From a virus, in UHGV virus genome UHGV-1351772: a DNA stretch of 64,000 bases. The stretch is one strand, 5' to 3'. The translations under genes were made by a program, and so were the position numbers. Positions 3,917 through 43,810 of this stretch are shown here, piece by piece. Position 1 is the stretch's first letter. Every line of letters begins with the position of its first letter. Under the pieces are notes generated by a model. The model worked only from the letters and a program-made list of their open reading frames with translations. It searched no databases and was not told where the DNA came from.

Positions 3917-5116
3917 ATGGCCTCCATTGTATACCAATACCCTTTAGATTTAACGGGAAGCCTAACCTCTAACGCCGTGGAGCGTCAGATTACGTTAGGT
4001 ACAGGTAAAGTTAACCGTGCGTTTGCTTTTCCTGACGGACCGTTTTATGCTGATACGTTCCGCTTGCGGGTTGCTAACCGACCCGATGCGACGTATGAGC
4101 GCGGAACGGACTACGAGTTGATTTTTGCACACCCGGCTTACGAGAAATTGACGAAGAACCGGGAAGTGGTAATGGCGGTTGTTGTAACGAACACCGCGAT
4201 TCCGACCGATATCACGGTATCAGCGCAAGTAGTCGGGGGCCCGCAGTCGGCAAACGTGCCCGCGATAGAACAGGCGATTGCCGAGCTGAATCTCGATAAT
4301 CGAACTGTTGGCTTTAAAGACTTGCGAAATGTTCCTGATACATTTCCTTCGGCACCAACGTATAAAGACGTCGGCGATATTTACGGCTTCGAATACATTA
4401 TTACGGTGCTCGCTGGCATCAAAGATGCGATAACGGCGGGCGATGCTGTACAGCTTGAGAACATCAAAGCGATTCTCGAAAGCCTGAAAAACGATTTCCT
4501 GGACGCGCTGAACGCGCACATTAACGCCACGGGTAACGTCCACCATCTGGATATTCATCAGGTTAACGGGTTAACAGAAACGGAGATCCGTGCACTGATC
4601 CGTGATGTGCAGTCTGCTATCGATGCAACCATTACTGATATTAATGCGTTGAAGAAAGCAGACGAAGCGTTAGGAAAACGTATTGATGCTGTTGTCAAAT
4701 CTTTGGAAGCGTGGAACGACCAACTTAACATCGTTGCCCAAAACTACCAGAAGATGGCACTGGCAATGGCGAATCTAAACTCGCTAGTGTTACAGTTACA
4801 GAAAAATATCAACGATCTGAGCACCAAACTCAACCAAGCGATTCAGCGCATTGCTGCGTTAGAACAACGGGGTAATGAGTCCGATCAGAAAATTGATAAT
4901 CTGCAACAAAACCTGGATGCGCTTAAACAACAGGTTGCGAATAACACGAACGCAATCAGTCAGGCGAATCAGAACCTACAAAACCATATTGCGGCGGATA
5001 ACCCACACACAGGCTATCTCCACAAGAAATACGGTGGTGTGGTTCAGGCTCCGGTGCACGTTAACGCTAACTTGACGTCCCGTGATGACGTTCAGGCAGA
5101 AGCGGGTACGAGATAA
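3917..5116 (+). CDS. fibrous virion protein with a long C-terminal coiled coil (tail-fibre-like)
   Basis: AGGAGA RBS 6 nt before the ATG at 3917 (track start 3911 is GTG flush against the RBS); heptad-like Q/N/L-rich segment (NLQQNLDALKQQVANN...). Confidence 0.5.
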   Translation: MASIVYQYPLDLTGSLTSNAVERQITLGTGKVNRAFAFPDGPFYADTFRLRVANRPDATYERGTDYELIFAHPAYEKLTKNREVVMAVVVTNTAIPTDITVSAQVVGGPQSANVPAIEQAIAELNLDNRTVGFKDLRNVPDTFPSAPTYKDVGDIYGFEYIITVLAGIKDAITAGDAVQLENIKAILESLKNDFLDALNAHINATGNVHHLDIHQVNGLTETEIRALIRDVQSAIDATITDINALKKADEALGKRIDAVVKSLEAWNDQLNIVAQNYQKMALAMANLNSLVLQLQKNINDLSTKLNQAIQRIAALEQRGNESDQKIDNLQQNLDALKQQVANNTNAISQANQNLQNHIAADNPHTGYLHKKYGGVVQAPVHVNANLTSRDDVQAEAGTR

Positions 5117-10725: not shown

Positions 10726-11256
10726 TTAGGACGTAAAACCGTCCAGCTCACCGTTGGTGGTGGCCAGGTCAATACGATTATCAACAACTTTCGGCGTAAT
10801 TACGAAAGTTGCCATTACACCCGGTTTATATCGGAGGTTCTTTTCAGTAACGGTACACGTTACCGTACGCAGAGTGACGTTATCATGTTCGTCTTTCTGG
10901 TCTTCGGTGTTGTACACAACGTCGCCTGGTGCGATAGCATCGTTCGGTTTAACTTTATTGATGTAATATTGTAACCAAGCGCGCAGTTCATTTTCTTGAA
11001 CCCAGCGAGACAGATCGTCAGTTAGTTCAATACGGCCTACAACACCCGGTTCCAGACGATCGTAATGCAGTTCGATTGCGCCTTTGAAATTCTCAGAACC
11101 CGGTAGTGCAGTCATGGTAACTTTGGTATTCTTACCTTCGCCTTCCAGCGCAGTAGGGAGACCAAAGGACACTTCTTTATCAGTTACCTGATGTGGTAGC
11201 TCAGTGTTAGCAGCATTATAAAGCGCGACCAACATCATCTGGTTAGTAGCTGCCAT
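10726..11256 (-). CDS. hypothetical protein, small-protein paralog family (member 1 of 6)
   Basis: 176 aa; shares with 11323..11853 the pattern NTK(V/I)T(M/L)TA...(S/Q)NFKG...HY.RL and the C-terminal ELDGFT. Confidence 0.6.
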   Translation of the reverse strand: MAATNQMMLVALYNAANTELPHQVTDKEVSFGLPTALEGEGKNTKVTMTALPGSENFKGAIELHYDRLEPGVVGRIELTDDLSRWVQENELRAWLQYYINKVKPNDAIAPGDVVYNTEDQKDEHDNVTLRTVTCTVTEKNLRYKPGVMATFVITPKVVDNRIDLATTNGELDGFTS

Positions 11257-11304: not shown

Positions 11305-11314
11305 CCCCCCCCCC
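11305..11314. repeat. homopolymeric C10 tract (G10 on the minus strand), intergenic
   Basis: Ten consecutive C read directly; lies about 50 nt upstream of the minus-strand start at 11256. Confidence 0.9.
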
Positions 11315-18918: not shown

Positions 18919-19413
18919 TTAGAGGTGTTTTCCGATAACTTCCGAAACTAATTCGTAAAGGTCATCGTCACTGCACACGTCTACGCTAATTCCGATATCG
19001 ATACTACGACTGCGGAACCCTACTTTGAGCGTTTTACCGAATTCGGTTTGTAGGGCTTTATAGAGTCTATTCTTATCTTCTTTAAAGAGAGGAACAGGTA
19101 GTCTAACAGTGAACTTGTAATGTTCTTTCGAAACAAGTTCGTTAGAATAATTAAAACGTTTAGCCACACGAGTTCCGATAATCTGTGTTATCAGCTTAAA
19201 CATTTCTTCGTCGCTATACGGTGTTGCACCATAACCGATATCAATAGAATTTCTACGGAATCCTGCGCAGAATAATGCACCGAATTGCTCACGGAATTCT
19301 TTGTGTAGAATATCTTTTTCTACGTCCCACAGCCCGTAACCCAAGTCAATCGTGAATTTGTATTTTTCTTTGTCGACTAATTCGTTAGTGTAATCAAGTC
19401 TAGTGAAGTTCAT
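18919..19413 (-). CDS. hypothetical protein with internal tandem duplication
   Basis: AGGAGA RBS before the ATG at 19413 (track start 19464 is GTG inside the upstream hairpin); two homologous halves (YTNELVDKEKYKFT / YSNELVSKEHYKFT). Confidence 0.55.
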   Translation of the reverse strand: MNFTRLDYTNELVDKEKYKFTIDLGYGLWDVEKDILHKEFREQFGALFCAGFRRNSIDIGYGATPYSDEEMFKLITQIIGTRVAKRFNYSNELVSKEHYKFTVRLPVPLFKEDKNRLYKALQTEFGKTLKVGFRSRSIDIGISVDVCSDDDLYELVSEVIGKHL

Positions 19414-19442
19414 GGTATATTCTCCTAAAATGGTTTCGTTAA

Positions 19443-19490
19443 GTGAGAGTAACTGAACTCTCACCTAGGTAATATATATCTGAAAATATT
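19443..19490 (-). promoter_or_regulatory. conserved promoter-like motif with 5' hairpin (copy 1 of 4)
   Basis: Minus-strand reading: AT-rich, CAGATATATATTACCTAGG, then hairpin GTGAGAG/CTCTCAC directly upstream of the RBS of 18919..19413. Confidence 0.5.
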
Positions 19491-19494
19491 TTTA

Positions 19495-19797
19495 TTAAAA
19501 ACCCGCAATAAAACTGCCTAGCGAGACACGCTGTAGGTATTTGGGCTTACGGGCCAGGTAACAGTTCTTAGGATTACCTATTGCCATCTGCGCAACTGCA
19601 CGTTCTAAACGCGGTGCTTCTAAGATGGCACGATAGTTCCCTTCGTAATGCATTAACCACGCACACTCTTCAACGAAACGTTTTGCTTCGCGATAATCTA
19701 ACGTACGAATTAACTTCTTGCCCCGGTATTGTTTTACATCACCGTTTTGACAAAATACAATAGTTTCACGATTCATTGATAATCTCCCAGAATTCAC
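19495..19797 (-). CDS. hypothetical protein
   Basis: 100-aa ORF in a compact minus-strand small-gene array. Confidence 0.45.
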   Translation of the reverse strand: MNSGRLSMNRETIVFCQNGDVKQYRGKKLIRTLDYREAKRFVEECAWLMHYEGNYRAILEAPRLERAVAQMAIGNPKNCYLARKPKYLQRVSLGSFIAGF

Positions 19798-20107
19798 GTA
19801 CTAAATTACTTTTATAGCCTTCAACCTCGGCACGACAACCTTTTGAGATTTTCTCAAGCAGTGCCAGGCCACCCTCTTTAGATAGCTTACCTTCGCAGAT
19901 CAATTCAGATATTGCACAGAGCTTGTAATAAAGTTCCCATTGTTCGGAGATTGATTTCGACTGTACCTTGATCAGTTCATCTTGCGTAGCAATAAGTTTT
20001 TCACTGATCTCGCAGACATCGCATTTCTTACGTTTAAAGAATTCTATTAGTTTAAAAACCACTGTCACCTCCTCTGGCAATCCAGGTCGCCACACGCACA
20101 TGGGCAT
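19766..20107 (-). CDS. hypothetical protein
   Basis: 113-aa ORF in the small-gene array. Confidence 0.45.
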   Translation of the reverse strand: MPMCVWRPGLPEEVTVVFKLIEFFKRKKCDVCEISEKLIATQDELIKVQSKSISEQWELYYKLCAISELICEGKLSKEGGLALLEKISKGCRAEVEGYKSNLVREFWEIINES

Positions 20108-20363
20108 CTTGAAAAGATGAGATTAATAAGATCACACCACCTAACGTACGAGGTACGCGTAAGGCTTCGAAACGTCGGCAGTAAGAGCGTACACAATACT
20201 CGGAACCTAAGATAACGATTTCGCAGTATTCTGAACGAATAGGCAGTAGTTGAGAAACGAGTTTATCGCACGTTTCTTTGTTGTCTTCTAATAACCCGCC
20301 TCTGAGAATATAATTGACAATGTTCTCAGGTACCGATGTGTTCGCGATTTTATTTTCCATCAT
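20052..20363 (-). CDS. hypothetical protein
   Basis: 103-aa ORF in the small-gene array. Confidence 0.45.
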   Translation of the reverse strand: MMENKIANTSVPENIVNYILRGGLLEDNKETCDKLVSQLLPIRSEYCEIVILGSEYCVRSYCRRFEALRVPRTLGGVILLISSFQDAHVRVATWIARGGDSGF

Positions 20364-20761
20364 TAAACTCCTATTGTGATCTCCGTAATGTGCATTCTTC
20401 GCATCTCACGGGTCATTCTGTCCATTGCTCGTTGACACTCGAATAAATTGTCGTAGTATTTCTGGGCGGTAACATTGAATAAAACTCGACCATCTTTCAA
20501 TTGTTTAGCAGCGACTCTTATAGTTTCCGATTCAAACAACCGACCGCCACCCCTACCAACCTTAACCATAACGTCACGAATAGTAACGTTTATAAGTTCA
20601 CCGTTAGGGGAAGTCACAACCTCCGTATACCAGTCGCCTTCTTTAACGACATATTGTACCCTTTTACCGCACAGCCAGTTTTTAACTTTCTCGTTAACAA
20701 ACAGTTGGACTTTTAATGACAAACGCCTTTTTAAGTAAACTAAACGTATCATGTAAATCAC
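20363..20761 (-). CDS. hypothetical protein
   Basis: 132-aa ORF. Confidence 0.5.
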   Translation of the reverse strand: MIYMIRLVYLKRRLSLKVQLFVNEKVKNWLCGKRVQYVVKEGDWYTEVVTSPNGELINVTIRDVMVKVGRGGGRLFESETIRVAAKQLKDGRVLFNVTAQKYYDNLFECQRAMDRMTREMRRMHITEITIGV

Positions 20762-20795
20762 CTTATCTCCCTCGGTGTTCCCGAGGGAGAGCTAA

Positions 20796-21077
20796 TCACA
20801 GTTTCTCTTCTATTGTATCTAATCGAACTAACGCATCGTGACTGACTTTCCGTGCGTGTCCGATTGTCCCACCGAGGGCTTTTGTTGTTGGGTCTAAGGT
20901 ATTCAGACGGTGATACTGATAATCGATATCACGTATACAACGCGCCTGTTGTTTTACCATCCGAATTAATTGTCGTTTGGTTTGACGATTGTTACTAAGC
21001 TCCTGCCGTAATCGCGTGTTTTCTTTATAAAGCTCCTGTTGACGTGAGTTAATTAAACCCAACAACCAATCTAACAT
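20796..21077 (-). CDS. hypothetical protein
   Basis: 93-aa ORF, basic, predicted helical. Confidence 0.45.
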   Translation of the reverse strand: MLDWLLGLINSRQQELYKENTRLRQELSNNRQTKRQLIRMVKQQARCIRDIDYQYHRLNTLDPTTKALGGTIGHARKVSHDALVRLDTIEEKL

Positions 21078-21079
21078 TT

Positions 21080-21595
21080 TTACCCCCGGTGCAAGAAAAT
21101 ACGGTTAGTGTTTTCGAATTTCGGTTCTGTCCACTCCAGTTCCCAGTAAGCCTGGTTAATATCGCGAGACGTGAGTTTCAAATTCGAAACGCCGGGGATT
21201 TCGATCTGCTGCAGTAAATTAATAATCGTCACCAGCTCTTTACGAGGACGGTTCCAGATAACTTCAAGATACTCTTTCAGACGCTCTGGGTAAGCAACGG
21301 GGCGAATATAAACTAGCCCAGTGGGATACTCAATTGCTGAGGGTGTTCTTGGCACTAACCAAACCCAGTCTTTTAATAGCGGCCCTGAGTGGTAGTTAGA
21401 GAGTTGAGTAAGCGCATTTGCGACCGAACAACAACGGAAGTAGGTGATATCCCAATCGTGTTCATGGCAATTTCGCGCAACGATAACTTTTAAACGGTCA
21501 ATAGGTTTACCGTCGATGGTCGTAACACCAGGTTGATTCGCCAGAATCTGACGTTCACGTTTAGTATAAAGATTCATGTTAATATTTACTGACAT
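21080..21595 (-). CDS. hypothetical protein
   Basis: 171-aa ORF; GGAG RBS upstream of the start. Confidence 0.5.
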   Translation of the reverse strand: MSVNINMNLYTKRERQILANQPGVTTIDGKPIDRLKVIVARNCHEHDWDITYFRCCSVANALTQLSNYHSGPLLKDWVWLVPRTPSAIEYPTGLVYIRPVAYPERLKEYLEVIWNRPRKELVTIINLLQQIEIPGVSNLKLTSRDINQAYWELEWTEPKFENTNRIFLHRG

Positions 21596-21621
21596 TTAAT
21601 GCTCCTTTAGGTAAATGGTGT

Positions 21622-21631
21622 GGGGGGGGGG
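21622..21631. repeat. homopolymeric G10 tract (C10 on the minus strand), intergenic
   Basis: Ten consecutive G read directly; about 27 nt upstream of the minus-strand start at 21595. Confidence 0.9.
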
Positions 21632-21646
21632 TAGGTTAATGCTTCG

Positions 21647-22489
21647 TTATTTAAGATTCTGAATTTCTCTCATCTCGTTACAAAACTTATCAAACAACTG
21701 GGCGTATTTGTCAATGTGATTTTCGAACTCCCCAAAAAGGTGGCGTGAAAGGCGTTCGCTGACTTCCTTTTCGTATTTCTCGAGAACGTGTTTAAAAGAT
21801 TCACTGTCTCTCTTAATTTTCTTCGCATGGGTTTCCAAAGTTTTAAGAAGTCGTGGTTCGTTTTTGATCAGGAGATGCAAGTCACCTTTAAGATATCTGC
21901 TTTGATAAATCATTATTTTGGCGAGCTTGTATTCACCTTTCACAACACTGATAAGCTCATCAGCACCGGCTTCTGTAATGTTTTCAACGGTAAATAGCAG
22001 AATATTTTCGCCCTCTATATCTTTCAATAGTTGATTTATAGGAGCTCGATAAGCAGTATATTCATTGCTCACTTTAAGCATGTTGTCTTCAATCACATAC
22101 GTGAATTTATCGCTGAAAAAATGGTATAGTATTGGTCCAATTTTATCTGCTTGTTTGGGGGTAAGTGGGAACTCCTTTGTGTAGTAAGCGTTGCCTTTCG
22201 TAGTTGGCTTGTCCTTTAGCCCACAAGTCGACTGTTCTGGTAATTCTGGATCTTTAGACACCTCAACAGATCGTACTAAAATATCCGTAATCGCACTAAT
22301 GAGTTTGTTAGGAAAATCGACATCACCTTCTACCCAGAAAATGTTAAATGATTCTGATTTAACTTTATAGTAAAAGGTGTACGTTTTTTGTAGTTCAGCG
22401 ATTTCCTTAATTTGTTTTTCAGTAGGGATAGGGGAGATCTTAAACCTGCTGATGACTTTTTCTTCTTCGGTGAGTTCGAACTGTAACAT
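21647..22489 (-). CDS. hypothetical protein
   Basis: 280-aa ORF. Confidence 0.5.
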   Translation of the reverse strand: MLQFELTEEEKVISRFKISPIPTEKQIKEIAELQKTYTFYYKVKSESFNIFWVEGDVDFPNKLISAITDILVRSVEVSKDPELPEQSTCGLKDKPTTKGNAYYTKEFPLTPKQADKIGPILYHFFSDKFTYVIEDNMLKVSNEYTAYRAPINQLLKDIEGENILLFTVENITEAGADELISVVKGEYKLAKIMIYQSRYLKGDLHLLIKNEPRLLKTLETHAKKIKRDSESFKHVLEKYEKEVSERLSRHLFGEFENHIDKYAQLFDKFCNEMREIQNLK

Positions 22490-22500
22490 GTTATAGTTCC

Positions 22501-22944
22501 TTAAATCATACCTGGGAATTCGAAATCGATTTTATCTAAAAGTTTGTAGTCGTCTTTTAGTTGAAGCATTAGCGTATTCTTAAACAGTTCAAGTGAACCG
22601 ATAAAGTAAGCCGTATAGCAGCTACCACGAACAGAAGAGGAAAGACCCAAGTCTCTTAAACACTGTTTCAAGATTTCATGTTCTTCAGCGGTACCGAAAA
22701 GTTGGAAATTGATAACGGTAATCTGTTTATTAATGATTGCCGATAACCATTCTTTAATTCTTCTCGTGGTTATACGTTCTTTGAAATCACTAGCTTCTGG
22801 CAACCAGGTAATGTGAACAAACGGTGCATCGTAATCCACGAGAACTTTCTGCTGCCAACGTACTTGCATCAAACCACGAATACGATTTGCTAACGTTTCA
22901 GAATCACAAAGTAACATAATGCCGTTGGTAGTATTTGGTTTCAT
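22501..22944 (-). CDS. hypothetical protein
   Basis: 147-aa ORF. Confidence 0.5.
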   Translation of the reverse strand: MKPNTTNGIMLLCDSETLANRIRGLMQVRWQQKVLVDYDAPFVHITWLPEASDFKERITTRRIKEWLSAIINKQITVINFQLFGTAEEHEILKQCLRDLGLSSSVRGSCYTAYFIGSLELFKNTLMLQLKDDYKLLDKIDFEFPGMI

Positions 22945-23792
22945 AATTGTCCTTCCTTCTTAATGTAATCTTCAACCAACTTATCAAACACGATTTTTAT
23001 CTTCTCGCGTTCTTCTTCACCCAATTCACCGGAACAGGTTAGTCCGTTTATCTTCCCATACCGTAACTCCAACACATATTTCAACCGATGACGTAAGGCT
23101 TGATCAAAATGCGTTGGAATATAGATCGGTTCGAAATTGTGCAATAAAATAAAATTGTCTTCGGTGTGTTTAGGGGGTTCGAATTTTACTTTATCTAAGA
23201 TAGTAAGCCAGCGTTGTCTGTCGACTAACCGATCGTCCCAATAAACAGGTTTTGTTTTAGAGGGGGTAAATGTGTTGTAGTTACTGGAATCGGAGATACG
23301 GAAATTTGCTGTGACATAAGTCTTCGTGAGTAACGAGAGAAGACAAATCGTTCCTTCTTCGGAGTAACTTAAACCCTCGTCGAGTATGTCCTTAGCTTTC
23401 TTGAAGTAGTCCTCAATATAGTTTTCAGCAATTGGTTGAATCTCTACTTCTATAGCGCTAATTTGAGGCCCGTCTATCCGTAAAGGAAATTTTAGTTCAC
23501 CAATATATTGCCTATCCGATGTATAAGCACGCGTAACAATAGGGTACGTAACAGGCTTAGCCAAATGACGATATTCACCAACCCTAATGACTGCGGAACG
23601 TCCAAAGTCACCTTTATTCGATTTTGAAAAACCGTAAAGGTCTTTTAGATACTCTAGATACTGACCATCCGTCATTTCATCGGTATTAAATTCACGAATG
23701 TATAGTCGATTAAAAGATCCTTCTGTTTGTTCGTAGTAATAACCAGGGTCCCTATTTGCTAGAATGTGCGGGAGATAATACGGGTGATACAT
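22941..23792 (-). CDS. hypothetical protein
   Basis: 283-aa ORF; AAAGGAGGA RBS upstream of the start. Confidence 0.55.
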   Translation of the reverse strand: MYHPYYLPHILANRDPGYYYEQTEGSFNRLYIREFNTDEMTDGQYLEYLKDLYGFSKSNKGDFGRSAVIRVGEYRHLAKPVTYPIVTRAYTSDRQYIGELKFPLRIDGPQISAIEVEIQPIAENYIEDYFKKAKDILDEGLSYSEEGTICLLSLLTKTYVTANFRISDSSNYNTFTPSKTKPVYWDDRLVDRQRWLTILDKVKFEPPKHTEDNFILLHNFEPIYIPTHFDQALRHRLKYVLELRYGKINGLTCSGELGEEEREKIKIVFDKLVEDYIKKEGQL

Positions 23793-23820
23793 CTAATCCT
23801 CCTTTAGGCTATAACTAATG

Positions 23821-23870
23821 GAGTGAATGTAAATTTCACTCTCTCCTAGGTAATATATATCTGAGAAAAA
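23821..23870 (-). promoter_or_regulatory. conserved promoter-like motif with 5' hairpin (copy 2 of 4)
   Basis: CAGATATATATTACCTAGG on the minus strand followed by hairpin GAGTGAA/TTCACTC; sits between a terminator and the gene start at 23792. Confidence 0.5.
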
Positions 23871-23908
23871 ATATAAAAACCGTAGGATGGACTAAGTCCA
23901 TCCTACGG
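23871..23908 (-). terminator. rho-independent terminator of the tailspike transcript (minus strand)
   Basis: 12-bp stem CCGTAGGATGGA / TCCATCCTACGG followed on the minus strand by a T-run. Confidence 0.7.
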
Positions 23909-23914
23909 TTTAAA

Positions 23915-26041
23915 TTAAATAACTACCCAGCTTTTACCATCAGAGCCAATCTGCATTAGCGTAATACTTTCATTGGTCTCAATGGGTTTGGCAAGACCTT
24001 CCGTCCCACTCTTTGGAGTGATGAGAACGTTTGAGTTTTCCGGTTTAACGATGATCTTACCAGCCTTATTTGCCACGATCTGTATATTTCTACCCACACT
24101 ATATTCTAGATCAGGAATAGTAAGTTGGCCGCCACGGTTGGTGGCTGGGAAATACACATAAGACGACACATCTTCCTCAGATAACACTATACCACCAGAA
24201 TCACGATTGACCGAGATCTCAAACTTAGAAATATCGATATCGTAGGCAGTAACTTTCGTAATATCCGTCAGAACCAATTCGTTCAAATTGGTCTTAGCTG
24301 TACTGTTCGCCAGATCAAATGGGGTACCTTCCGTACCGTCAAGCACAGGCGTGACTTTGATTTTATTGTCACCCGGATAAATGATTTCAAACGTATGCCA
24401 GTTATTATCGTACGCACCAAAAGATCCTAATTGCACATTCTGCTTTTTATGATGCATCAGATAAAGATTCGTACCGTCGGTCTGTAAGAAAAAAGACATT
24501 AAGTACGGGTTCGTATCAGCCACACCAGCGTCAGCAAGTGTAGTACCAGAAGGTAGGTCGGACGCGGAAATACGCCAATAAAGTCCTAATCCGAAACGAT
24601 CTGCTGCTAAATCACCTTTTAGTCTAAAAGTAACGGTCAGACGTCCACCGTAACGTATCATGTCCGCAGCAGATGTCATTGACTTAGTTACATTCCAAGG
24701 TTTCATCGTTACAGCCTTTCTTAATTCGACGAAATGCCCGTTTCCATCCTCAGAATCTTGCACGGTTACGTTACAATCAACGATATTGTTCCAACCCTGC
24801 CCTTTCAGGGAACCATCTCCACGACGTCCGTTATAACCCACAGACTCTACTAATGGGGTATAGCTTCTTACCACATTCATATTGTCTTTGAGCTCTTTAG
24901 TGTCGTTCTTCGTCAGGAGCATTGCACCATTCGCTGTTCTTGATAATATCTCAGCAGCTATTCTCTCTGAGATAATACCGCGTCGTGCCCAAGAACTGAA
25001 ATGGCTATTCCTTGTTTCAGACGTCCAGTTTTTATTACTACGGGTGGCAGCACCGTAGTAGGCAGCACCAGCGATATCAGGATCGTCAGTGGGATCATTA
25101 GTCGGTACACGTTGGCCATTATCGTCGTACATGAATGGAACAAAAAAGATATTTTTTTGTTCATTGTTACGATAATTACCGTATATGGTTTCATATTGAA
25201 CAGGATATTTTTCCTTCCAATAGTAGGTAGTGTCCCCGCAGATCCATGGTACTTCGGCGGTGTCGTACTCGGGCATCTGAGAGAGATGGTCAGAGAGATC
25301 AGTTCGGAAACGCTCTACCATTGCCATAAATAACGCTGGTTGTTGTGCGTAACCTACTTTAGTCAGATCATACTCCCCCTGCATCCACACTACAGCCAAG
25401 AGTTTATTTTTAGGATTAACGTCCAGAGCTTTTTTGGTCCGGCTAACTAAATCTTTATAAAGAGGTTTTTCCACCCCCCATACCGATGACGTCGCAGAGG
25501 CTCCTGTGGCTTCATCGAAGGTACCTTCTGCACCACCCGTGAAAGCAGAACCGCCGCGTGCGCAGGGTACTAGTAAGATACCAGCGTTGCTAGGAATATA
25601 CGGGAGAAGACGCTTCGCGATGTGTAGACCTTGACCCACACATCCGTATTCACCTTTGTCCAAATTGGCTTTGGGGTGCGAGAATACGGACATATCTTGC
25701 ACGTCGTGCAGACAGTGATCCGCTGGAATGACGTCGTTATACTTACAATCAGCACCATTAGGCGTTACCTTCGCACGGCGCGCCATTTGTTTAATCCGCG
25801 GATCGGGAGCGTCCAACGTCGCTGGTAAAGGCAATCCTTCACCATAACTCATCGCATTAGATTGCCCGGCTATAGGGATCACGAAGTAATAATCCGGTTC
25901 CGTCACCCCCCCCCCTTGAAGTTCTGCAATATCAATTTTATATTCTTTTTCTTCCTTAGAAAGGAGAACTACCGCACCTTTGAGATCGCCAGAGAAATTG
26001 TCGAGTTCATGGATACGTTTCTTTCCAATTGGTTGAACCAT
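23915..26041 (-). CDS. tailspike/tail-fibre protein with sialate-O-acetylesterase-like (SASA/SGNH) domain
   Basis: GGAGGT RBS before the ATG at 26041 (track start 26053 is TTG); N-terminal 40 aa homologous to the N-terminus of the 1519-aa fibre; GQSNAM esterase motif. Confidence 0.65.
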   Translation of the reverse strand: MVQPIGKKRIHELDNFSGDLKGAVVLLSKEEKEYKIDIAELQGGGVTEPDYYFVIPIAGQSNAMSYGEGLPLPATLDAPDPRIKQMARRAKVTPNGADCKYNDVIPADHCLHDVQDMSVFSHPKANLDKGEYGCVGQGLHIAKRLLPYIPSNAGILLVPCARGGSAFTGGAEGTFDEATGASATSSVWGVEKPLYKDLVSRTKKALDVNPKNKLLAVVWMQGEYDLTKVGYAQQPALFMAMVERFRTDLSDHLSQMPEYDTAEVPWICGDTTYYWKEKYPVQYETIYGNYRNNEQKNIFFVPFMYDDNGQRVPTNDPTDDPDIAGAAYYGAATRSNKNWTSETRNSHFSSWARRGIISERIAAEILSRTANGAMLLTKNDTKELKDNMNVVRSYTPLVESVGYNGRRGDGSLKGQGWNNIVDCNVTVQDSEDGNGHFVELRKAVTMKPWNVTKSMTSAADMIRYGGRLTVTFRLKGDLAADRFGLGLYWRISASDLPSGTTLADAGVADTNPYLMSFFLQTDGTNLYLMHHKKQNVQLGSFGAYDNNWHTFEIIYPGDNKIKVTPVLDGTEGTPFDLANSTAKTNLNELVLTDITKVTAYDIDISKFEISVNRDSGGIVLSEEDVSSYVYFPATNRGGQLTIPDLEYSVGRNIQIVANKAGKIIVKPENSNVLITPKSGTEGLAKPIETNESITLMQIGSDGKSWVVI
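25906..25915. repeat. homopolymeric C10 tract (G10 in the mRNA) inside the tailspike coding sequence
   Basis: Ten consecutive C read directly; encodes GGG plus the first base of Val at codons 43-46, at the junction between anchor and enzymatic domain. Confidence 0.9.
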
Positions 26042-26363: not shown

Positions 26364-26879
26364 TTAATGATCTCCGAAGGTTAATGCACAATTATCTGCG
26401 GTAACGATTAAATCGTCGTCTTTTGTTACTGCGGCTTCTTCACCGTTACCGAAAACCAGAACAGAGAATTGACCTTTATAACCTAATGAACCAGGCGATA
26501 CCTGCAACGTTACCGCGTCTTTTCCTACAGTAAATGAATCATCTGTTAGATCTTCAGCTTGTAAGTTACTGCCACAAGCTGCGTTAATCGCTTCGATTAA
26601 ATCGTGTGTGGTAAACCCTTCCCCGGCTACTTTTACCAGAATAGGTTGCTGGTTTAACCACCGCTCTGCGGTTAAACGGTTGTAATAGATCTGCAACGTT
26701 CTGTTTCCAGGACGCTTAATCTTTACAACGGCAGTGGTGTCACGATTCATCTCTTCAGTAGGATTTACGTTGCTGAACTCAACCTCGTTTTCTTGCAGAT
26801 CGAGCTGAAGGTCGTGGTTGATCAGCGATATAACCATGTTAGTTGAAGTTAATGATAAATCTGGTGTGAATTGCCCCAT
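26364..26879 (-). CDS. hypothetical protein, small-protein paralog family (member 5 of 6)
   Basis: GGAGGT RBS before the ATG at 26879 (track start 26894 lies in the RBS); N-terminus FTPDLSLTS...ISLINHD parallels 33100..33660. Confidence 0.55.
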   Translation of the reverse strand: MGQFTPDLSLTSTNMVISLINHDLQLDLQENEVEFSNVNPTEEMNRDTTAVVKIKRPGNRTLQIYYNRLTAERWLNQQPILVKVAGEGFTTHDLIEAINAACGSNLQAEDLTDDSFTVGKDAVTLQVSPGSLGYKGQFSVLVFGNGEEAAVTKDDDLIVTADNCALTFGDH

Positions 26880-26977
26880 AAAGTTTACCTCCAACGGTTA
26901 GGGGAGTCATAAAATGTTGGCTAAAACATTTCACCCCTCCCCCGATTATGTTTTCAAGCACTATGACTTGAAAATAA

Positions 26978-27481
26978 TTAGCTAATTCTCAAATCACGTA
27001 GTGCGCCTGTTGACTTCATCACGTTTTGGAACGCAGCGCTGATGTTATTAGTCCAGTAATAATGCTGACCGTTAATAACTTGCTGGTAAGACAGCGCGCA
27101 GGTGTTGCCACCTAAGTTTACAGTGATGTTAGAGGCTCTGCCGCCTTGTAAGTAAACCGCTAAAGTAGGCTTTGCGTTAGCAACTACCGTCGTTAACTGT
27201 AACTCGATACCTACTAAAGTTCCCACCCCGCAGTTACCAGCGTTTTGAATGGTTCCCTGATTTTTCTGGTTTAACGGCCAGCTTGGTCCTACTGCGCCCC
27301 ATTTCTTACCTAAAGAATCGCTATATGCAGCGGTTGCAATTTTACAGCCCATAGATCGTCCCACCATTTGACTCATCATAAAAGGTCTACCCAATCCTAA
27401 TTTACTACCCGCAGCGCTCATCCATTGTTGGCCAGTTTCATTCCTAGCTGAAGATCCGACCCATCCTGACGCTACCCCCAT
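26978..27481 (-). CDS. glycine-rich protein (short paralog of 27498..28280)
   Basis: GGAGGG RBS; N-terminus GWVGSSARNETGQQWMS matches GWIGSSAKAEAGNGWMS of the neighbour. Confidence 0.55.
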   Translation of the reverse strand: MGVASGWVGSSARNETGQQWMSAAGSKLGLGRPFMMSQMVGRSMGCKIATAAYSDSLGKKWGAVGPSWPLNQKNQGTIQNAGNCGVGTLVGIELQLTTVVANAKPTLAVYLQGGRASNITVNLGGNTCALSYQQVINGQHYYWTNNISAAFQNVMKSTGALRDLRIS

Positions 27482-38478: not shown

Positions 38479-38515
38479 GTGAGAACTCTCACATAGATGA
38501 AATATATCTTAAAAT
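38479..38515 (-). promoter_or_regulatory. conserved promoter-like motif with 5' hairpin (copy 4 of 4, diverged)
   Basis: AAGATATATTTCATCTATG followed by short hairpin GTGAG/CTCAC on the minus strand, upstream of 38186..38455. Confidence 0.4.
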
Positions 38516-43762: not shown

Positions 43763-43810
43763 AGAGTTAATCATAACTCTCACCTAAGTAAAATATATCT
43801 GAGAAAAAAT
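43763..43810 (-). promoter_or_regulatory. conserved promoter-like motif with 5' hairpin (copy 3 of 4)
   Basis: CAGATATATTTTACTTAGG on the minus strand then hairpin AGAGTTA/TAACTCT; immediately downstream of the terminator at 43818..43841. Confidence 0.5.

Follow-up and report, generated by a model that had tools for sequence, protein, structure and literature searches.

We analyzed a 64,000-nt stretch of the virus genome UHGV-1351772 (hereafter the window), in which all the genes from ~10.7 to 56.7 kb lie on the - strand. Between two of these genes, encoding products of 280 and 171 aa, a short intercistronic spacer contains a homopolymer (Table 1). The bases bordering it are T on either side (positions 21621 and 21632 on the sequence ruler), which makes it an exact G10 on the + strand, and it reads C10 in the mRNA sense because the neighboring genes are all on the - strand. 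The sense order is the TAA stop codon of the 280-aa ORF (21647-21649), 15 nt, C10, ACACCATTT, an extended ribosome-binding site ACCTAAAGGAGCATTAA and the ATG of the 171-aa ORF (21595-21593), which places the tract 27 nt upstream of that start codon, with 26 nt in between. The Shine-Dalgarno (SD) motif of the 171-aa gene, 14 nt downstream of C10, is embedded in CCTAAAGGAG, a context also seen in front of other genes of the window. A sequence-only reading of this DNA had described an intergenic G10 27 nt upstream of a start codon; the sequence ruler and the ORF coordinates bear out the distance, and the position between one stop codon and the next ATG bears out the intergenic location.

Judging from its protein relatives, the identity of its structural genes, a phiKZ-type head protein and an RNA polymerase beta-like gene, the window comes from an uncultured SPN3US/phiEaH2-like jumbo phage of Enterobacteriaceae. 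The structural genes show ~75% nucleotide identity to those of phiEaH2, the internal head protein is of the phiKZ type (PF12699), and a 591-aa protein is 77% identical to the putative RNA polymerase beta subunit of Asesino. Among GenBank phages, megablast with the local 4-kb region as query gave no match, the relatives there being protein-level only. Two circular 222-kb "plasmid" relatives, from E. coli strain 98232, a urine isolate (NZ_CP173450.1), and from Enterobacter ludwigii (NZ_CP134650.1), show ~84-88% nucleotide identity to the window phage. These isolate-borne relatives indicate an enterobacterial host, and their deposition as circular plasmids of bacteria suggests a carrier or pseudolysogenic state.

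As for the gene downstream of the tract, the best cultured relatives of its 171-aa product by tblastn are found in Erwinia phage phiEaH2 (57%), Asesino (56%) and Salmonella phage SPN3US (46%). The protein has no family in Pfam or NCBIfam, and PHROGs gave phrog_8180 only. Its AlphaFold2 model has a mean pLDDT of 80, and a Foldseek search of the PDB with this model returned only nucleotidyltransferases, none of them significant (best E-value 0.04, TM ~0.25-0.3), so that a nucleotidyltransferase function, or any other, was not retained for it. In relatives lacking the 280-aa cassette, a 147-aa gene joins the leader of the 171-aa gene directly. Upstream of the tract in the direction of transcription lies a tail-fiber module encoding a 1519-aa fiber, two gp38-like adhesins, a DUF7941 virion protein and a SASA/DUF6645 esterase.

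Table 1. Coordinates of the features discussed in the text (positions in the window unless stated otherwise).
Feature	Position	Strand	Remark
Studied tract	21622-21631	+ (G10); sense - (C10)	From the sequence ruler
Intercistronic spacer, 51 nt	21596..21646	-	Between the 280-aa and 171-aa genes
171-aa gene	21080..21595	-	Downstream of the tract; phrog_8180 match, unknown function
280-aa gene	21647..22489	-	Upstream of the tract; unknown function; presence/absence cassette among relatives
Shine-Dalgarno AAGGAG of the 171-aa gene	21602..21607	-	Within the CCTAAAGGAG context
Sister tract, sense G10	11305..11314	-	Between two 176-aa DUF7941 paralogues; G9-G12 in relatives
Sister tract, sense G10	25906..25915	-	In 712-aa SASA/DUF6645 ORF; Gly-Gly-Gly, in frame in the window
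Interrupted tract, G5-A-G4	26934..26943	-	Upstream of DUF7941 gene 26364-26894; orthologous to uninterrupted G7-G13 in relatives
Adhesin-start tract of relatives L007-L012 and L030-L037	~438-450 / 4438-4450 in relatives; window equivalent 27473-27481	-	
Promoter-like motif CAGATATATATTACCTAG, exact	23846..23863	-	Putative start of the tract-containing array
Promoter-like motif CAGATATATATTACCTAG, exact	19465..19482	-	Marks the start of the following array
Promoter-like motif, two mismatches to CAGATATATATTACCTAG	43784-43801	-	From the listing of intergenic regions
Promoter-like motif, weaker (fourth) copy	near 38509	-	From the motif search
Intrinsic-terminator-like hairpin, strong	23877..23911	-	16 pairs and a T run; ends the preceding SASA-esterase transcription unit
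Extra C (CC doublet)	21634..21635	-	AACCTA-C10 in the window; AACTA-C10 in 11 other assemblies
Extra G	11317		AAAGTC-G10 in the window; AAATC-G10 in every other assembly
Indel	17680		A5 in the window; A6 in ERR975218_10
Indel	25152		A7 in the window; A6 in ERR975218_10

The tract is real, and a chance origin can be rejected. The window holds six G/C runs of at least 6 bases, three of them of length 6 and three of exactly 10 (11305-11314, 21622-21631 and 25906-25915), with none of 7-9. Under a first-order Markov model of the window, solved analytically, 0.018 runs of at least 10 are expected against the 3 observed (Poisson P for at least three, ~9e-7). A/T runs of at least 6 are, by comparison, under-represented (35 observed vs 83 expected). 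The three runs of identical length agree with the earlier claim that the tract belongs to a set of similar ones.

Long G/C homopolymers invite errors whatever the sequencing platform, and this counts for reading the tract as an artefact of sequencing or assembly (a poly-G artefact, for instance, or a repeat that was collapsed), as does a pattern of indels in the window. Comparison of the window with the same-strain Logan contig ERR975218_10 revealed no substitutions and four single-base indels over ~27 kb, the only differences between the two, and in two of the four the window has one more base, identical to that of a tract two nucleotides away. On the + strand, each of these two bases comes two positions after the homopolymer and is the same base as the homopolymer, and they could be incomplete-extension errors of flow-based sequencing (454 or Ion Torrent). 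The run at 21622-21631 nonetheless recurs, identically placed and flanked, in 11 further assemblies that several studies produced with more than one assembler (ENA scaffolds, megahit contigs, Logan and NCBI); the three tract lengths in the window (10, 10 and 10) agree with those of independent assemblies; and the sister tract within a coding sequence keeps the reading frame, with Gly-Gly-Gly as its translation. An artefactual origin is, consequently, very improbable. A small ORF or a read-through extension across the tract was rejected since its frame differs between the window and every other assembly. At the A run around 25146-25152, within the 712-aa esterase gene, the A6 of ERR975218/CYGL01 splits the ORF into 360 and 335 aa.

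Length variation was then read from relatives recovered through exact-protein look-ups and translated searches. Among 12 assemblies of the lineage, the window included, the tract is C10 in 10, C9 in one (SAMN26286646) and C11 in one (SAMN26286629); these are lengths in the assembly consensus rather than read-level distributions, and the sampled genomes are phylogenetically related, not independent. The length polymorphism that had been anticipated for the tract does therefore exist. The genomes with a long tract are 0.7-1.1% apart by substitutions over 20 kb, and against that background 2 of the 12 tract lengths deviate, a comparison of consensus values and not of indel rates. Exact-flank DNA searches of IMG/VR gave no match (one of the queries used the window-specific AACCTA flank), and GTDB genome contigs yielded none either, whether scanned for a DNA pattern or for protein.

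Beyond this lineage, more than 20 further relatives, with 88-99% identity in the 171-aa protein, have C5 or fewer, or no run at all. The sequences found at the tract position are TCACCCCACC, TTACCCCAC, TCACACCACC, TCGCCCC, CACACC, C4, C5 or no run; the short-tract relatives include both 222-kb elements, that of E. ludwigii being without a run, and phiEaH2 has C5 at this position and SPN3US none. Since the long run is limited to one lineage and its relatives have C5 or fewer, the tract is a young, lineage-specific expansion. Relatives without the long tract carry the same gene with the same ribosome-binding site, and the downstream block ACCATTTACCTAAAGGAGCATTAAATG is almost invariant in them. 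C10 lies where this conserved block with the ribosome-binding site gives way to a variable segment. By this comparison, the 171-aa gene and its translation signals evidently work without a long tract in most relatives.

The sequence-only reading had also assigned the tract to the promoter/5' UTR of the 171-aa gene, and for a promoter the data give no support. Listing all the intergenic regions of the window brought out an 18-nt promoter-like motif, CAGATATATATTACCTAG, with 3 matches against 0.02 expected, always on the - strand (Table 1). Extended to ~27 nt as TTTCAGATATATATTACYTAGGTGAGAGT, this motif is conserved upstream of genes in phiEaH2, SPN3US and all the close relatives examined; in two relatives, L001 and L002, it is at 10908 and 9328, respectively. 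In each phiKZ-like phage, the virion RNA polymerase recognizes a conserved element in front of the early operons, AT-rich and preceded by a T-rich region (PMC7598289, PMC8244752). Being conserved and AT-rich, TTTCAGATATATATTACYTAGGTGAGAGT fits this description and probably serves the entire SPN3US-like group as its early promoter, used by the virion RNA polymerase. Neither form of the phage promoter-like motif occurs in the 51-nt gap, no sigma-70-like site overlaps 21596-21646, and the nearest CAGATATATATTACCTAG copies are 2.2 kb upstream and 2.1 kb downstream of the tract. The upstream copy comes after the terminator-like hairpin (23911-23877 in the sense direction).

With no promoter signal in the gap and the motif 2.2 kb upstream, the tract is best seen as an intercistronic leader element inside an operon. 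It would be internal to a co-directional array of ~4.4 kb, from ~23860 to ~19490, with an exact CAGATATATATTACCTAG copy at either end, whose products are, in order, 283, 147 and 280 aa, then, after the tract, 171, 93, 132, 103, 113 and 100 aa. The transcript carrying it is probably polycistronic and, by the inferred early-operon assignment, early. The gap holds no terminator-like site, that is, a G+C-rich hairpin followed by a U run, and C10 was rejected as an intrinsic terminator on this ground and because the tract is predicted to be unpaired.

The missing promoter signal bears directly on another explanation, in which the tract is a functional contingency locus whose length tunes the 171-aa gene, via an undetected internal middle or late promoter or via translation initiation, and the phage population hedges between expression states. 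A long, non-random and polymorphic tract (C9/C10/C11), 14 nt upstream of an SD and in the leader of a conserved gene, is what such a locus could look like, and the existence of contingency loci in phages, some of them intergenic, has been put forward (PMC12633550). In phiKZ-like phages, middle promoters consist of a weak AT-rich motif and late promoters only of TATG (PMC7598289, PMC8244752), and both are unpredictable from sequence (PMC7598289), a point in favor of an undetected one. The gap has, however, no promoter-like signal of either the sigma-70 or the phage type, and transcription in this phage group is carried out by the phage's multisubunit RNA polymerases; the promoters known for these consist of one short element each, which leaves no spacer that could vary (PMC7598289). 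Moreover, more than 20 close relatives have the gene together with its ribosome-binding site but not the tract.

Translation initiation fares no better as the target of such tuning. We folded the sense strand from ~90 nt upstream to ~80 nt downstream with tracts of C4, 6, 8, 9, 10, 11, 12 and 14. From C4 to C14, the predicted minimum free energy is -21.7 kcal/mol at every length, the pairing probability of the C tract is 0.02-0.05, and that of the SD is 0.62-0.63 whatever the tract length; the predicted leader structure and SD accessibility are thus independent of length, which counts against a contingency locus. A hairpin of the C tract with a nearby G run was rejected, as no G run is within reach and the tract is predicted to be unpaired. 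With no G run in pairing reach and constant folding, length-dependent riboregulation is not predicted by these models. An Rfam scan of 19000-24500, at E-values up to 1, gave no match.

An unpaired tract suits a further possibility, namely that C10 is a length-insensitive C-rich RNA or DNA element, acting as a ribosome-binding-site insulator, a binding site for a protein or Rho, or a recombination hotspot at the cassette junction. The 280-aa cassette has its junction at ...ATA(A/G)C | TTAA, and the 3' junction, where the cassette comes or goes, is 3-4 nt before the C run; moreover, the equivalent position in relatives is C/A-rich (CACCCCACC, CACACCACC). An insulator is hard to reconcile with an SD that is equally accessible for C4 and C10. 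The cassette junction also occurs in relatives with C4 only, so the long tract is unnecessary for it, and the short C run is itself unconserved (CACACC, CGCCCC, none in E. ludwigii). We consider such an element to have a low probability.

The phage group carries several sister tracts, and these put the variability of C10 in perspective. In eight sibling genomes, the tract at the start of the gp38-like adhesin gene (ATG then Gn) has lengths of 8, 11, 11, 11, 10, 9, 9 and 9, the intergenic tract upstream of a 170-aa DUF7941 gene 9, 10, 11, 9, 11, 13, 10 and 10, and the studied tract 10, 10, 10, 10, 9, 10, 11 and 10. That the studied tract is less variable than its sisters is only suggestive with eight related genomes, but among the four tract sites compared it shows the smallest variation in consensus length, a further point against a contingency locus. 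It is also the youngest of the set: two intergenic G sites are retained, as G7-G13, in relatives ~16% divergent in nucleotide sequence, a divergence at which the C tract is not. The persistence of these other intergenic tracts suggests that some are maintained, and in this respect favors the contingency explanation. Taken together, we regard a functional contingency locus as unlikely, and its narrower form, a true intergenic locus setting the expression of a conserved early gene, for example by an internal promoter for the phage RNA polymerase, as more doubtful still.

The adhesin-start tract behaves differently from C10. In this gene, whose product has a Gp38_N domain, G8 and G11 are in frame and give 168/169 aa; with G9 and G10 the frame is shifted or a stop codon follows at once, and the product called for the gene is cut to 124 aa. 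The gene is thereby OFF in four of the eight natural samples. The window has at this adhesin start a short, stable ATGGGGGTA (G5). The intragenic position of ON/OFF-type tracts applies to the adhesin start and, by position only, to the G10 at 25906-25915, a site where a sister lineage has CAGGGCACG and no tract. The interrupted G5-A-G4 looks like a tract stabilized by a point mutation. The G run at 11305-11314, retained in the E. coli and Enterobacter 222-kb elements, is the 5' arm of a predicted G/C hairpin (G run, TAAC, CTCCCC) that is terminator-like, with a T-rich stretch after it. An origin of C10 as a copy of another tract, moved by recombination, was rejected because the flanks are unrelated.

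The explanation that we favor, with a probability of roughly 60%, is that C10, within its intercistronic linker, is a young, slippage-prone and nearly neutral repeat that probably plays no part in switching. A short C/A-rich stretch in the leader of the 171-aa gene, still C4-C5 in relatives, would have expanded to a long C run, and the length would since have changed by one base up or down, most plausibly by slipped-strand mispairing during replication of the phage DNA. The run comes after the preceding stop codon and before the ribosome-binding site, in what is probably an early, polycistronic transcript. Because of this position, length changes would alter only an unpaired C-rich linker, leaving reading frames, promoter spacing and the predicted accessibility of the ribosome-binding site unchanged. 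The tract would then most likely be a by-product of the same mutational process as acts on the tail-fiber module, where the G tracts are more variable.

Two observations count against neutrality. The window under-represents homopolymers and yet keeps three G/C runs of exactly 10, which hints at maintenance rather than drift, and the tract is uninterrupted, at 10 +/- 1, in genomes 0.7-1.1% apart. This constancy could reflect selection on length, or a mere mutational equilibrium near 9-10; the polyG tracts of Campylobacter jejuni have a modal length of G9 (PMC3401435). A third reservation is that the middle and late promoters of phiKZ-like phages escape prediction from sequence (PMC7598289), which leaves some probability to an internal promoter that uses the tract.

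Taken alone, the studied tract matters little, as a real and probably hypermutable repeat that has no demonstrable switching role and for which the promoter idea is dispensable. Its lineage has a broader interest, being a jumbo phage common in human-associated metagenomes that carries a family of G/C tracts of 7-13 bases. The adhesin-start tract, in frame or out of frame in natural samples, extends to SPN3US-like jumbo phages the polyG-type contingency loci previously known from Campylobacter phages and T-even phages. In this lineage, natural samples could be used to examine whether selection or a simple mutational equilibrium underlies such tracts. Were C10 an intergenic contingency locus after all, it would form, with the G tracts of the fiber module, a multi-locus bet-hedging system in a gut phage.

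How does the tract compare with known systems? A literature search on homopolymer tracts in jumbo phages found none, and the closest parallels are in other phages and in bacteria. In Campylobacter Fletchervirus, going by the account of Sorensen et al. 2021 as cited in PMC12633550, hypermutable polyG tracts are found within the ORFs for receptor-binding proteins, which they switch through frameshifts. On that account, the likeness is in G/C homopolymers of 7-11 bases, in a lytic phage, whose lengths differ between siblings, and in the sister tract at the gp38-like adhesin start, which toggles the reading frame in the present phage group. Unlike those described there, the studied tract is intergenic, among small genes of unknown function and outside the fiber genes, so no frame is affected.

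The contingency loci of T2/T4/T6, T7 and ICP1 are repeats of at least 6 bases with raised rates of +/- one indels through polymerase slippage (PMC12633550). C10 surpasses the 6-7 bases that are the least required of a mononucleotide repeat in such loci, and it lies outside any ORF, 15 nt past a stop codon and 26 nt before an ATG; a minority of the T2/T4/T6, T7 and ICP1 loci are likewise intergenic (Gomez, Barrick and Waters preprint 2025, PMC12633550). Most of the loci described there are A/T runs of 6-9 bases, the present tract being a G/C run of 10, and their validation came from reversion rates and deep sequencing, in contrast to the consensus-length polymorphism among assemblies reported here.

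Turning to bacteria, long C or G runs upstream of a gene that vary by slippage invite a comparison with promoter-spacer switches, and C10 shares with these a long slippage-prone G/C homopolymer and length differences between siblings. The C-stretch of Bordetella fim2/fim3 and the poly-G/C tracts of Neisseria porA/opc sit between two sigma-70 promoter elements, and their length sets promoter strength. No such promoter exists here: C10 does not lie between two spaced promoter elements, the polymerases are those of the phage, and the tract is inside an operon. With no bipartite promoter around it, the tract falls outside this class. The polyG/C tracts of C. jejuni belong to a bacterial chromosome; the majority sit within genes and have ON/OFF phenotypes that are defined (PMC3401435). 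What C10 and its sisters share with them is a bimodal distribution of run lengths, a mode near 9-10 and frequent +/- one changes (PMC3401435).
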